Assembly (NCBI GenBank): GCA_036626435.1
Contig: JAZKRS010000004.1
Location: 2,517-66,516, forward strand
Length of the DNA: 64,000 nt
Direction: 5' to 3'
Origin: Haloarculaceae archaeon
GTDB taxonomy: Archaea > Halobacteriota > Halobacteria > Halobacteriales > Haloarculaceae
Below the pieces are notes generated by a model. The model was not told where the DNA came from and did not search any database. It worked only from the letters and a program-made list of their open reading frames with translations. The translations under genes were made by a program, and so were the position numbers. Below, piece after piece: positions 1,543 to 62,033 of this stretch. The first letter of the stretch is position 1, and each line of letters begins with the position of its first letter.

Positions 1543-2346
1543 TCACATCGCCATGCCCCCGCCCAGCGGCTGGTAGTGCGGGAGCATGGGGTGTGGAATG
1601 TGGATCCCGACTGCCATCAGCCCGTGTGCCAGCAGGACGTACCCCAGAACGAGAAAGAGGGCACCGAGCAGCCGATGGAGCCGCTGGCGGTGGACCGCAT
1701 CCACCGACTCGATGAGCGTTCCGTAGGCGAAGACTGCTGGAATCGTGCCGATTCCCAGCGCTGCGAGCGCGATAGCGCCGGAGACTGCCGACCCAGTTGC
1801 GAACGCGAACAGGTAGGCGGGATAGAGTATTGGGCAGGGCAACAGCCCGTGGAGCGCTCCCAGCCCGACGATACCCGGGCTGTTTACGAACCGCTGTACC
1901 CGAACGGCGAGCCAGTTCGTCACCCGGCCGACACCGGGGAGCTGGATGCCTGCGGCCCCGCCCCCGACCAGATACTTCGCGCCAGCCACGATCACGAACA
2001 CGCCGATCGCGATCCCGACACCGCCCCGGACCAGGTCGGCCACGGCGGTCAGCTGATCCGCAGTGACGAAGACGAACCCGCCGAGCCCACCGAAGGCAGC
2101 GCCCAGCAGCGTGTAGCTGGCTGCCCGGCCCACGTTGAACAGGGCGTGCTGGCGGACCTCGTACAGCGTGAGATGCCCACGCGGTTCGGGGCTGCTCTCG
2201 GTGGCCATCCCGCCGTCCGGGCGCGGGGTCATTCGTTCCGAGTACATCGTCACGAGCGGCCCACACATCCCGATACAGTGGGCTCCGCCGAGTAACCCGA
2301 TAGCGAGGAACAGCAGGACATCCACCCGGAATATGGCTTCGAGCAT
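1543..2346 (-). CDS. DsbD_2 / TauE-SafE-like integral membrane protein
   Basis: 267-aa multi-TM ORF with the N-terminal GGAHCIGMCGPL motif. Confidence 0.75.
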   Translation of the reverse strand: MLEAIFRVDVLLFLAIGLLGGAHCIGMCGPLVTMYSERMTPRPDGGMATESSPEPRGHLTLYEVRQHALFNVGRAASYTLLGAAFGGLGGFVFVTADQLTAVADLVRGGVGIAIGVFVIVAGAKYLVGGGAAGIQLPGVGRVTNWLAVRVQRFVNSPGIVGLGALHGLLPCPILYPAYLFAFATGSAVSGAIALAALGIGTIPAVFAYGTLIESVDAVHRQRLHRLLGALFLVLGYVLLAHGLMAVGIHIPHPMLPHYQPLGGGMAM

Positions 2347-2409
2347 GTCCGTCTATCCCTTGTAACGTGTGCACCCAATTAGCAGTTCTGGTACGAACGG
2401 CGAACCAGG

Positions 2410-2493
2410 TCATACTAACGGCTATAAGCCCGTGAGCGATGTCGATCCCCCGTGGGGTCGACTATGCTCACGAAGTTATAGCCGTCAGTATCA
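2410..2493. mobile_element. MITE family A, copy A1 (78-nt palindromic core 2413-2490 flanked by TCA/TCA)
   Basis: Core runs tactaacggctataagcccgtgagc...gctcacgaagttatagccgtcagta. It has 6 mismatches to copy A2 over 78 nt (hand alignment). The flanking TCA 2410-2412 and 2491-2493 are direct duplicates. Confidence 0.75.
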
Positions 2494-3252
2494 GGCCTCG
2501 TCCTCGTCCTCGGTGCCTCGCTGCGAGGCGTCGCTGACTGCCACCTGCGCCGCCCGGATCACCTTCCCGCCCATCTCGTAGCCCGGTCGGTGGACCTCGG
2601 CGATCGCCCCCTCGGGCTGTGCCGAGGCGATGGTCGCCAGCGCCTCGTGGCGCTGGGGATCCACGTCCCCACCCACCTCCGGGTCGATCCGTTCGACGTT
2701 CTCGCGCTGGAGTTGCTCGTCGAACTGTTTGAGCGTCGTCTCGACGCCGCCCCGGATCTCCGCGTCCTCGCCCTGTTCGAGCGCACGCTCGAGGTTGTCG
2801 CGGACATCGAGCAGACGCTCGACGAGGTCCTCGGTCGCGCGTTGCTTTTCTTCGGCCATGCGCTCCTTCTGGCGCTTCTTGTAGTTCTCGAAGTCAGCCT
2901 GCTTGCGTGCGAGGCGCGATTCGAGGTCGTCGATCTCCTCCGCACGCGATTCGACCTGGCCCTCTAAGGCGGCGACGCGCTGGCGCAGCAGCGCGATCCC
3001 GCGTGCGGTCGTCTCCGGCGATGTCTCGCGGACCCGGTCGAGCAGCTCCTCCTCGACGTCGAGGTCCCCCGGGTCCGGCACTGTGCTGTCCTCGTCGTCC
3101 GTCCTCTCCTCGCCGCCGGCGTCGCCGATGATCTCCGAGAGCGCTTCGTCGGGATCGCCCTCTGGCTCCTCGGCGATATCCTCGACTGCGTCGGCTCGGG
3201 GGGTCACGTCCTCGCTGGGGTTCTCAGAGTCGGCCGCGTCCTGCTCGCTCAT
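2491..3252 (-). CDS. grpE: nucleotide exchange factor GrpE
   Basis: Internal ATG 3252 (MSEQDAADSEN...) of the 599-aa track ORF. It has an acidic N-terminus, the coiled coil ...ADFENYKKRQKERMAEEK..., and the C-terminal ...VHRPGYEMGGKVIRAAQVAV. The stop (TCA on +, 2491-2493) is the right flank of MITE A1. Confidence 0.9.
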   Translation of the reverse strand: MSEQDAADSENPSEDVTPRADAVEDIAEEPEGDPDEALSEIIGDAGGEERTDDEDSTVPDPGDLDVEEELLDRVRETSPETTARGIALLRQRVAALEGQVESRAEEIDDLESRLARKQADFENYKKRQKERMAEEKQRATEDLVERLLDVRDNLERALEQGEDAEIRGGVETTLKQFDEQLQRENVERIDPEVGGDVDPQRHEALATIASAQPEGAIAEVHRPGYEMGGKVIRAAQVAVSDASQRGTEDEDEA

Positions 3253-3333
3253 ACCAGAAGGAAGCCCTCTCGCGGATAAAAGCGTTGAGAAAGCCGTCGG
3301 TAGATTCTTGCTCGCAGGGCCCGACCCCCCGAC

Positions 3334-4383
3334 GTGAACTCGGAGTTCGCCTTCGAACTGCAGGTCTGCCAGTGGGCCGAGCGCCACTGGCCCCCCGGTT
3401 CCGGCCGTGAAATTCCCGTCCTCGTCGCGCGTCAGCTGGGAACGAAGCGGCGGCGCTGGGATACCATCGTCCTCGAGTGTGACCCCGCGGCCCTCGCAGC
3501 CCGGGCCAGGTTCGGCACACAGCGACTCGACTCCGACCTCCTCCACGTCGTCCGGAACGCACCTGAGGTGTGGGAGTGGTACCGCGACGCACTTCCCGAC
3601 CCGGGCTACCCCTGGCGGTACGTCAGGGAGGCAGTCCACCGCGCGGCCGACCGGGGGGTCGTCGAGACCCGGAAGGCCGACACCCGGATCCAGCTCCGCC
3701 GGAAGTGGCCGTACCCGGACTGGGTCGAGCGGATTGTCGCCGTCGAAAACAAGCCCGACCTCGACGCGAGCGCGGCTCGGGCGCTCGTCGGACAGATCGA
3801 ACACGACGTCGCGCTCGCACTCGCAGACGAGGTGTGGGTCGCCACCAGCAGGGCGGACGGGCGGATCGAGCCAGCACTCTTCGAGGATATCCCGGTCGAG
3901 GCGGGGATACTGACCGTCGAGCCGGGTGCCCGCGGCGCCAGCGCGGTTGAGGTGGTCTGGCAACCCCGGACGCTCGCAGTCGACGAGCCGGGGACGCGCA
4001 TCCTCGACCGGCCACAGGGGGGCGGCCACGACGTCTCTGGGGCGCGCTTCGAGTACGCGGACCCGGACTGGAAGGCGGCGAAGCGACTCGAGATCGCCGA
4101 GCGGGCCTACGAACGGGGCTGGCGGTCCTACGCCGACGCGATGCGCCCCGACTGCCGGGGCTTCCGCCTGCAACCTGGCGAAAGCGTCGCACGGCCGTAC
4201 TGTGCGGCCAAGGGTCGTCACCAGACGCCCGGGGAGTGTGCTGGCTCCTGTCCCGACTTCGAGCCTGAGCCGCCGACCTGGCGCCAGCACGGCTGGCCCA
4301 TCGAAGGCGGGCCCGGAGCCGCCATCAAGCGCCTGCTCGACCGCCAGCGGGCACGCCAGCGGCCGGACGCACGGGAGACATGA
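3334..4383 (+). CDS. conserved hypothetical protein with PD-(D/E)xK-type nuclease signature and C-terminal Cys cluster
   Basis: 349-aa ORF. YPDWVERIVAVENKPDLD gives PD-x9-E-x-K. The C-terminus has Cys-x16-Cys-x11-Cys-x3-Cys (CRGF...YCAAKG...GECAGSCPDF). Confidence 0.7.
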   Translation: MNSEFAFELQVCQWAERHWPPGSGREIPVLVARQLGTKRRRWDTIVLECDPAALAARARFGTQRLDSDLLHVVRNAPEVWEWYRDALPDPGYPWRYVREAVHRAADRGVVETRKADTRIQLRRKWPYPDWVERIVAVENKPDLDASAARALVGQIEHDVALALADEVWVATSRADGRIEPALFEDIPVEAGILTVEPGARGASAVEVVWQPRTLAVDEPGTRILDRPQGGGHDVSGARFEYADPDWKAAKRLEIAERAYERGWRSYADAMRPDCRGFRLQPGESVARPYCAAKGRHQTPGECAGSCPDFEPEPPTWRQHGWPIEGGPGAAIKRLLDRQRARQRPDARET

Positions 4384-9248: not shown

Positions 9249-9647
9249 GTGGAAATCTCGAATAAACTCCTGTGTCTGTTCAGTGCTGAAGTAACCGCGG
9301 ACGGGGACCGCTACGTCGTCGAGGTCCCGAAGCGTGAAATCGAGACAGGATCTATCGATCCCTCTCACACCTACCGTGTCGCGCTCATCAGAGCCGACGA
9401 GCCGGAGTCCGGGGGCGAGGAGACGACCGAGACATCGCCGTCGGAGCCCCAACCGCCTGTCGAACCCGGCGAGATCCGGTACGTCGAGATCGAGGACATC
9501 GGCAAGCAGGGCGACGGCATCGCACGGGTCGAACGCGGGTACGTCATCATCGTTCCCGGCGCCGAGATCGGCGAACGCGTCAAGGTCGAGGTCACCGAGG
9601 TCAAGTCGAACTTCGCGGTCGGCGAGATAATCGACGAAAACGTCTGA
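9249..9647 (+). CDS. TRAM domain protein
   Basis: 132 aa. The C-terminal ...EIEDIGKQGDGIARVERGYVIIVPGAEIGERVKVEVTEV is TRAM-like. The stop TGA 9645-9647 is the left flanking triplet of MITE A2. Confidence 0.8.
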   Translation: MEISNKLLCLFSAEVTADGDRYVVEVPKREIETGSIDPSHTYRVALIRADEPESGGEETTETSPSEPQPPVEPGEIRYVEIEDIGKQGDGIARVERGYVIIVPGAEIGERVKVEVTEVKSNFAVGEIIDENV

Positions 9648-9728
9648 TACTGACGGCTATAAGCCCGTGAGCGATTTCGACCCCCCGCGGGGTCGAATCT
9701 GCTCACGAAGTTATAGCCGTCAGTATGA
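9645..9728. mobile_element. MITE family A, copy A2 (core 9648-9725 flanked by TGA/TGA)
   Basis: Core runs tactgacggctataagcccgtgagcgatttcgaccccccgcggggtcgaatctgctcacgaagttatagccgtcagta. Direct TGA at 9645-9647 and 9726-9728. Confidence 0.8.
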
Positions 9729-27026: not shown

Positions 27027-27073
27027 AAATACTGGCGGGCGAAAATCCGCAGGATTTTCGTCCGACAGTATCA
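27027..27073. mobile_element. MITE family B, copy B1 (core 27030-27070)
   Basis: tactggcgggcgaaaatccgcaggattttcgtccgacagta is the reverse complement of copy B2 except in the apical loop. Flanks are AAA and TCA. TCA 27071-27073 is the stop of the GT2 gene. Confidence 0.75.
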
Positions 27074-44533: not shown

Positions 44534-44619
44534 TGATAGTGACTGCTGTAAGCCATTACCGATCCGACCGCCGGACAGCAGGCGGTCGCTCCGGTAAACT
44601 GTTACAGCAATCACTATGA
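44534..44619. mobile_element. MITE family C, copy C1 (80-nt core 44537-44616 flanked by TGA/TGA)
   Basis: tagtgactgctgtaagcc...ggtaaactgttacagcaatcacta. 16-nt terminal inverted repeats and an internal palindrome gaccgcc/ggcggtc. 2 mismatches over 80 nt to the reverse complement of C2. Confidence 0.8.
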
Positions 44620-57664: not shown

Positions 57665-57707
57665 TACTGTCGGACGAAAATCCCCGGATTTTCGCCCGCC
57701 AGTATCA
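57662..57707. mobile_element. MITE family B, copy B2 (40-nt core 57665-57704)
   Basis: TGA+tactgtcggacgaaaatccccggattttcgcccgccagta+TCA. The left triplet is the rlmE stop and the right triplet is the pdxT stop (minus strand). Confidence 0.8.
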
Positions 57708-58304
57708 AACGGGCTGTGTCGCCGCGTCGAAGAAGGCGAGGTCGTGGATCCGAGAATCGTCAGTCAGTTCGGGGTGGAATGAGGTGCCGACAACCGGTCC
57801 CTGGCGGACTGCGACGGGGTTGTCATCCCAGGTGGCGAGGGCCTCGACGCTCTCGGCGACGTCGGCGACGACCGGCGCGCGGATGAACACCGCGGGGAAG
57901 GGTGCCTCAAGGCCGTCGACGTCCAGGGGCGCCTCGAAGCTGTCCTTCTGTCGGCCAAAGGCGTTGCGCTCGATGCTCACGTCGAGAATCCCCAGTTCGT
58001 CGACGCGGTCGTCCCTGGGGTCGGTGCTGGCGACGATCAGCCCGGCACACGTCGCCAGCATCGGCTTGCCTGCTTCGACGTGGTCGACAATCTCCGGGGC
58101 GATGTCCTCCCGGTCGAGCAGCCGGGAGATGGCTGTCGACTCGCCCCCCGGCATGAGCAAGACGTCACACTCGGGGACGATTCCGGCCGTTCGGATCTCC
58201 CGGACGTCGCTTTCCCGGCCGTGAGCGCCCGCGGCGCGCCTGATCGCTGTCGCGTGTTCGCTGACGTCGCCCTGGACGGCGACGACACCCGCGGTGAGAG
58301 TCAT
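57705..58304 (-). CDS. pdxT: pyridoxal 5'-phosphate synthase glutaminase subunit
   Basis: 199 aa. ...LLMPGGESTA...ATCAGLI...FHPE... triad context. Confidence 0.9.
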   Translation of the reverse strand: MTLTAGVVAVQGDVSEHATAIRRAAGAHGRESDVREIRTAGIVPECDVLLMPGGESTAISRLLDREDIAPEIVDHVEAGKPMLATCAGLIVASTDPRDDRVDELGILDVSIERNAFGRQKDSFEAPLDVDGLEAPFPAVFIRAPVVADVAESVEALATWDDNPVAVRQGPVVGTSFHPELTDDSRIHDLAFFDAATQPV

Positions 58305-58358: not shown

Positions 58359-58442
58359 TCATACTGACGGCTATGACTTTGTGAGCATAGTCGACCCCGC
58401 GGGGGGTCGAACTTGCTCATGGGCTTATAGCCGTTAGTATCA
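58359..58442. mobile_element. MITE family A, copy A3 (inverted; core 58362-58439 flanked by TCA/TCA)
   Basis: The reverse complement differs from A2 at 8 of 78 nt. Direct TCA at 58359-58361 and 58440-58442. Confidence 0.8.
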
Positions 58443-61947: not shown

Positions 61948-62033
61948 TCATAGTGATTGCTGTAACAGTTTACCGGAGCGACCGCCTGCTGTCCGGCGGT
62001 CGTATCGGTAATAGCTTACAGCAGTCACTATCA
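61948..62033. mobile_element. MITE family C, copy C2 (inverted; core 61951-62030 flanked by TCA/TCA)
   Basis: tagtgattgctgtaacag...cttacagcagtcacta. The reverse complement matches C1 at 78 of 80 nt. Confidence 0.8.

Follow-up and report, generated by a model that had tools for sequence, protein, structure and literature searches.

A 78-nt foldback MITE family with TNA target-site duplications, often shared with stop codons, in a Haloarculaceae genome

The analyzed window, a stretch of 64,000 nucleotides (positions 2517-66516 of contig C4 in a draft genome of 2.85 Mb, 117 contigs and 65.7% GC), includes three copies of a short palindromic repeat, here called family A, located next to grpE, next to a gene coding for a TRAM-domain protein and upstream of pdxT (Table 1). 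As the first-pass annotation had proposed, each of the three cores is exactly 78 nt long and the third is inverted in relation to the other two. When oriented alike, the copies differ pairwise at 6, 8 and 8 positions, in agreement with the 6-8 differences counted earlier. The cores are flanked by direct triplets, which on the plus strand are TCA/TCA, TGA/TGA and TCA/TCA in copies 1, 2 and 3, respectively.

Table 1. Positions in the window of the three family A copies and of the triplets flanking them.
Feature	Position	Strand	Evidence or remark
Left TCA target-site duplication of copy 1	2410-2412		Sequence
Family A MITE copy 1, 78-nt foldback	2413-2490	+	Fold -47.2 kcal/mol, z -9.0
Right TCA duplication of copy 1, equal to the grpE stop codon TGA on the minus strand	2491-2493	-	ORF list; Pfam GrpE, E 1e-41
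Left TGA duplication of copy 2, equal to the stop codon of the TRAM-domain gene (9249-9647)	9645-9647	+	TAG stop and no insert in five congeners
Family A MITE copy 2, 78 nt	9648-9725	+	Fold -55.6 kcal/mol, z -11.3; site empty in G001-G005
Right TGA duplication of copy 2	9726-9728		Sequence
pdxT-proximal TCA duplication of copy 3 (TGA in element orientation)	58359-58361		About 55 nt upstream of the pdxT (SNO) start at 58304
Family A MITE copy 3, 78 nt, inverted in relation to copies 1 and 2	58362-58439	-	Fold -39.2 kcal/mol, z -7.9
Second TCA duplication of copy 3, equal to the minus-strand stop codon of a putative 28-codon ORF	58440-58442		Read from sequence

The surroundings of copy 1 differ from those in the relatives. 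Five congeneric genomes have dnaK after grpE, a place occupied in the studied genome by copy 1 and unrelated sequence. The dnaK of the studied genome is present on another contig (C23, 34624-36600), which ends 555 nt upstream of the gene inside a family A copy differing from copy 1 at 2 positions. The separation of grpE and dnaK may reflect a rearrangement, or else the assembly was interrupted at a MITE.

Short-word BLAST identified 183 family A loci in the 2.85 Mb of the studied genome, approximately 124 of them near full length, covering altogether 0.42% of the genome. Pairing of the two 14-nt termini produced 131 complete elements, including 82 of exactly 78 nt. The mean distance of the copies to their consensus was 4.8 nt (about 6%) and the pairwise divergence about 10%, with few identical pairs, and the termini were the least variable blocks of the element. 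The family looks middle-aged rather than like the product of a very recent burst, and divergence of this degree does not establish present-day activity. The lone ends found in the genome were truncations, nested insertions or contig ends, some of the contigs terminating within family A copies.

Family A was present in all five congeneric genomes, which are all MAGs, and 13 of the 401 high-quality genomes examined in the class matched the consensus of the studied genome. Two other genera were represented by five near-complete assemblies (2-50 contigs) with 34-68 termini per strand, and the 78-nt size together with TNA flanks was also found in genomes G087, G104, G113 and G177. A complete genome of another genus (G098), of which 2.8 of 3.3 Mb were analyzed, contained 105 loci in these 2.8 Mb, with perfect TNA flanks in 54 of its 67 full copies. 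One further copy, with TGA/TGA flanks, was located on plasmid pLC1Hm-01 of Halomicrobium sp. LC1Hm (NZ_CP044130.1). The element is thus 78 nt long and flanked by TNA triplets in every lineage sampled. Since the consensus is specific to the lineage, in at least three genera, the family has been amplified repeatedly. The draft state of the studied genome, with 117 contigs and some of them ending inside copies, could suggest that the repeats are assembly artefacts or chance palindromes, but the probability of this is negligible in view of the 183 loci and the presence of the family in closed genomes and a closed plasmid from independent projects.

The flanking triplets were identical in 104 of the 131 complete copies, and all of these were of the type T-N-A (TGA 47, TCA 47, TAA 8 and TTA 2), the central base being C or G in 94 copies (90%). 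Outside the duplication, C was present at position -1 in 58% and G at position +1 in 61% of the copies, producing a palindromic target C-TNA-G. Because the central base varies and is yet the same on both sides, the triplets represent real target duplications, which rules out that the palindrome simply extends further or that the element inserts beside a fixed target sequence. The loci orthologous to copies 2 and 3 lend further evidence. The former is empty in all five congeners, in which the stop codon of the TRAM-domain gene (TAG) runs straight to the downstream spacer, and the latter is empty in G002, G003 and G005; in G004 a related element has inserted independently at a distance of about 25 nt and in the opposite orientation. 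Copies 2 and 3 are insertions, therefore, as their orthologous sites are empty in congeners. Copy 1 has no counterpart in the relatives, the synteny being different there. The interpretation of the first-pass annotation, a MITE with 3-bp target-site duplications, holds on the basis of both the triplets and the empty sites. Neither a shortage of further copies nor a lack of duplicated triplets around them, the two findings which that annotation had set against mobility, was observed (183 loci; 104 of 131 copies with identical TNA flanks).

The duplication was imperfect in the remaining 27 of the 131 copies, most of which differ at the central base only (e.g. TGA...TCA). Mismatches restricted to the central base are commoner than random decay of the three positions would produce, suggesting that copies have exchanged flanks through recombination. 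An apparent asymmetry in the orientation of TAA versus TTA duplications, at first 8:0, became 8:2 when all 131 copies were included and was 2:3 in G098, and was consequently regarded as chance. At C10:38243-39418, two inverted family A copies surround 1.0 kb of DNA with a GC content of 54% and a 107-codon ORF. The outer flanks of this unit are TTA/TTA and the inner ones TGA and TCA, and the unit adjoins a tRNA gene and a TnpB remnant. Such an arrangement would be expected if the outer ends had moved the whole unit, and it is read here as a composite-transposon signature.

The TNA flanks of the family bear also on the possibility that the repeats are REP/REPIN-like or derived from IS200/IS605 elements (PATE-like) and moved as ssDNA by a Y1/HUH enzyme (RAYT, TnpA). 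In favour of this, the imperfect foldback has conserved bulges as in REPIN doublets, searches did not reveal a conventional IS partner, and IS200/IS605-type TnpB elements are present in the studied genome. Y1 enzymes, however, insert beside a fixed short target and without duplication, whereas 104 of 131 family A copies of the studied genome and 54 of 67 copies of G098 have the same base at the variable centre of both flanking triplets, which shows a true duplication, and the ends are true terminal inverted repeats instead of subterminal hairpins. Mobilization of this kind is therefore very unlikely.

The RNA minimum free energies of copies 1-3 ranged from -39 to -56 kcal/mol (z-scores from -8 to -11 in comparison to dinucleotide shuffles), each strand of each copy forming a long hairpin. 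The near-perfect palindrome with a hairpin of about 37 bp described in the first-pass annotation was in part an overstatement: the hairpins are real, but 7-11 of the 39 arm positions are non-complementary and only about 31-34 bp are paired. The 3x3 internal loop with GCC opposite AAG, in turn, was recovered in all three copies and also in nearly all genomic copies. A second internal loop is present at 26-29/50-53 in copies 1-3, and most family A copies have an A.C mismatch at 5/74. Apart from this mismatch, positions 1-15 were paired with positions 64-78, forming terminal inverted repeats, in more than 94% of the copies.

Comparison of the consensus of the studied genome with that of G098 revealed fully compensated changes at pairs 6/73, 12/67, 33/46 and 35/44 and partly compensated changes at pairs 15/64, 24/55 and 29/50, while positions 16-18/61-63, 26-28/51-53 and 5/74 were unpaired in both lineages. 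Such compensation would arise if one protein bound both arms as long terminal repeats, but equally if the foldback as such were important, and the data do not separate the two. With the loop kept across genera and the stems compensated, some constraint on the shape of the foldback is possible. Compensatory changes are found even in the apical stem, at a distance from the termini where simple binding of a transposase would not call for them, and this counts against the explanation preferred below. Derivation of all copies from a single master copy is enough to explain the conserved asymmetry within one genome. The asymmetry had earlier been taken to indicate that one strand may be read as RNA or ssDNA, but the copies located at stop codons show no bias in orientation in relation to the gene (26:17 in the studied genome and 12:15 in G098), and a strand-specific RNA role is disfavoured for this reason. 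No covariance model of Rfam matched at gathering score anywhere in the window.

The duplication was shared with a predicted stop codon in 43 of the 131 copies (about a third). The stop codons make up only 6.5% of the non-coding TNA sites, or 9% when the sites are weighted according to the C-TNA-G target (p about 1e-13), although the fold-enrichment is to be taken as approximate, the gene models being crude (GC3-based ORF picking) and the non-coding background probably over-counted. Also in G098, stop codons were shared by 26 of the 67 copies against an expected 5%. Spacers between divergent genes, that is, on the promoter side, were not depleted of copies in comparison to the background. An insertion at a stop codon leaves the gene intact because the duplication rebuilds TGA or TAA, and the simplest reading of the enrichment would be that such insertions are neutral and thus survive.

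Another reading is that the elements are of mobile origin and have been kept for host use, as a hairpin that forms transcript ends, stabilizes transcripts or acts as a terminator at the 3' ends of genes, or as a protein-binding site. Roles of this type at the 3' ends of genes have been proposed for REP/BIME and Correia elements in bacteria. The 3- to 7-fold excess at stop codons, the four lineage-fixed compensatory pairs with the two loops that stay unpaired, and the high stability of the hairpins would all be in line with such a use. It is nevertheless improbable, as the copies are not biased in orientation towards the gene, occur in the divergent promoter-side spacers at background frequency, are missing at the orthologous genes of relatives and have no Rfam match, and as the covariation of the arms is equally expected from long terminal repeats bound by one protein.

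As stated in the first-pass annotation, no cognate transposase is present within the window. The same annotation had pointed to the IS1031 group of the IS5 family and to PIF/Harbinger-Tourist elements, and derivation from and mobilization by an element of the IS1031/IS427 group or of the PIF/Harbinger type is possible but rather doubtful. In its 3-bp TNA duplications and its palindromic C-TNA-G target, family A agrees with the established features of the IS1031 group and resembles the CTAG/TA targets given for IS427-type elements in the ISfinder family descriptions, and regular TNA duplications are not known from any other prokaryotic IS group. The domain searches, however, did not support this parentage: PF13586 (DDE_Tnp_1_2, IS1031/IS427 type) was detected in none of nine carrier MAGs and none of nine carriers at least 98% complete, and PF13359 (DDE_Tnp_4, PIF/Harbinger type) likewise in none of the 18 carrier genomes, while control genomes responded in both cases. 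Furthermore, no element with family A termini was found, and 90% of the copies have C or G at the centre of the duplication, unlike the A or T of Harbinger/Tourist elements.

A full-length IS with matching TACTG termini was found neither in the studied genome nor in the 2.8 Mb of G098, the five listed complete genomes or the plasmid collection, in which BLAST matched just one further MITE copy. None of the lone family A ends of the studied genome had an IS-sized partner. The search for 14-nt inverted repeats (at most 2 mismatches) with identical TNA flanks, located 0.5-3.5 kb apart, detected only MITE-MITE pairs in this genome and in the 2.8 Mb of G098. The multicopy repeats identified by self-BLAST of the two genomes were TFB paralogues, TnpB elements, an ISH11-like IS and an IS6-like IS, none with TNA duplications or TACTG ends; the multicopy ISs of G098 were the TnpB elements, the ISH11-like IS with a 7-bp duplication and the IS6-like IS, all with ends different from those of family A. 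A 14-mer scan of viral contigs produced single chance matches only, and the genes located between clustered family A copies were housekeeping genes, with no transposases among them. A loose scan for element ends in G098, with 3 mismatches allowed, gave too much noise to be informative.

Some candidates were rejected. A 938-bp element of G004 (contig C168; L034 1306-2243) with family A ends and TGA/TGA flanks looked like a deleted parent IS, but turned out to be an IS1182-like IS inserted at the apex of a MITE with a 4-bp ACGG duplication of its own. Intact IS1182-like relatives, for instance in Haloarcula japonica (L047, about 1948-3626), have a 463-aa DDE_Tnp_1_6 transposase and the ends GAGCCTGTCCGA. 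A second IS1182-like insertion in a family A MITE was found in G001 (contig C296; L035 1311-1672), and the IS1182-like IS with GAGCCTGTCCGA ends is multicopy in Halococcus morrhuae. The candidate pairs of G098 at 1278 bp and 3027 bp consisted of two MITEs flanking ordinary genes.

Family A looks orphaned in every genome examined. Its parent may be extinct, located on unsampled plasmids or viruses, too divergent for the Pfam models, or of an unrecognised type. Many accepted MITE families are orphans, and a missing autonomous element does not bar membership. At 78 nt, the element is foldback throughout, non-coding and too short for a transposase gene. By its size, inverted repeats, duplications, dispersal and empty sites, family A is a genuine orphan MITE family.

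Other small elements occur together with family A. Family C, of 80 nt, is present in the window at 44537-44616 and 61951-62030 and has 14 of its 18 terminal nucleotides in common with family A (TAGTGACTGCTGTAAGCC). The studied genome contains 36 family C loci, with TNA duplications in 25 of 26 full copies, and the transposase is probably shared with family A. A MITE family of about 77 nt (TACCGGTCGACGTAAG...CTTACGTCGACCGGTA) with a TA duplication has 55 loci in the genome and none in the window; 11 of its copies are located inside the TATA of family A elements, forming composites of 154-158 nt (e.g. C23:1165-1320, C96:3591-3747 and C37:1424-1580). At C61:12189-12377, a family A copy includes a 111-nt insert with inverted ends of its own (TACACCCGGTCACG...CGTGACCGGGTGTA), a third small element nested at TA. 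The window also contains two copies of a 40-nt hairpin family with TACTGNCGG termini (27030-27070 and 57665-57704), the latter separating two convergent genes, whose stop codons are the TGA at one edge of the hairpin and the TCA at the other. G098 has two copies of an IS6-like element of about 780 nt with ends GTGTTCAGA (C1:326277-327057 and 906392-907165), which both include an internal family A MITE with TGA/TGA flanks, and the MITE has thus been duplicated together with the IS. Bare 14-nt palindromes, TACTGCCGGCAGTA, resembling two fused termini, are located beside TGA near positions 211526, 229642 and 2022292 of the same contig and may be internal-deletion derivatives or footprints.

With multicopy dispersal, terminal inverted repeats, TNA duplications, empty sites, a composite-like pair and enrichment at stop codons all observed, the palindromes very probably constitute a non-autonomous MITE family with two imperfect inverted arms of about 39 nt, moved in trans with duplication of TNA, the surviving copies being enriched on stop codons. 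According to this model, a transposase acting in trans would recognize the common termini (TACTGACGGCTATAAGCC...), make cuts staggered by 3 nt at the (C)T-N-A(G) target and join the element ends to it, and repair of the gaps would then duplicate TNA. The chemistry would be that of DDE-type staggered cutting. Insertions at stop codons would spare the gene and survive preferentially in a compact genome, selection then being the presumable cause of the stop codon enrichment.

A more speculative proposal concerns the enzyme itself. Families A and C could be long-term partners of an unrecognised TNA-duplicating transposase, either domesticated in single copy or carried by viruses or plasmids, instead of relics of an ordinary IS, forming in Haloarculaceae and related families a system similar to REPIN/RAYT but with DDE-like chemistry. 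The likelihood of this is low. If it were true, the shape of the foldback would have been selected, either because transposition needs it or because of a role at the 3' ends of genes, and the compensated stems and conserved loops would be explained.

The family matters for annotation, as one 78-bp element makes up about 0.4% of the studied genome, and its share is similar in the genomes of several other haloarchaea. Copies lie against stop codons, cause breaks in assemblies and mark points of rearrangement, and recognition of the element prevents mis-called ORFs and mis-joined contigs. Family A is also a clean case of the way in which a TNA-duplicating element can fill a compact archaeal genome through harmless landing on stop codons. 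The main puzzle is the enzyme: the family has been amplified repeatedly, yet the carrier genomes hold no candidate. If found, the enzyme would extend the short list of archaeal transposases that duplicate TNA. The ends to search with are TASTGACKGCTRTAAGCC-like termini with TNA flanks.

Family A resembles several known systems without being identical to any of them. The IS1031 group of the IS5 family, together with IS427 and the MITEs derived from these, is similar in its 3-bp T-N-A duplication with a free central base, short palindromic target and terminal inverted repeats, but differs in that the 18 family A carriers had no DDE_Tnp_1_2 and no full-length element with family A termini was found. 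PIF/Harbinger elements and Tourist MITEs share the 3-bp T-x-A duplication and the small non-autonomous foldback derivatives; they are, however, eukaryotic and duplicate TAA/TTA, whereas the duplication of family A is TGA or TCA in 90% of the copies and its carriers have no DDE_Tnp_4. REP/REPIN sequences with RAYT are likewise abundant intergenic imperfect hairpins, long-lived in a lineage without an IS-like parent, but REPINs do not duplicate their target and are tied to a single-copy Y1 gene, while the duplications of family A are clear. The Correia elements of Neisseria (CREE/NEMIS), RUP, ERIC and Nezha are very short, non-coding and nearly all inverted repeat, with hundreds of intergenic copies that form stable hairpins when transcribed, and their mobilizing transposase was also long elusive. 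Differing from family A, Correia elements duplicate TA, are 100-155 bp long and bacterial, and their effects have been demonstrated (promoters, RNase III sites), while family A is known here from its sequence.

Transposase-free repeats have been described in haloarchaea as the MITEs and SMRs of Haloquadratum walsbyi (PMC3119063) and as ISH2 and MITEHsal of Halobacterium salinarum (PMC7002104). These are similar to family A in having inverted terminal repeats, in being often hit by other mobile elements and in sometimes having no partner transposase. The described MITEs are 200-520 bp long with duplications of 5-12 bp or longer, and the SMRs of Haloquadratum, of about 110 bp, have no duplication (PMC3119063, PMC7002104); unlike family A, none has been reported to be a foldback of 78 bp that duplicates TNA or is associated with stop codons. 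A census of prokaryotic MITEs from 2024 placed an unclassified Haloarculaceae genome highest among the archaea with 251 MITEs, leaving the individual families undescribed (PMC11602168). The literature did not reveal any account of a haloarchaeal foldback of 78 bp that duplicates TNA, and family A adds a new family to a kind of element already familiar.
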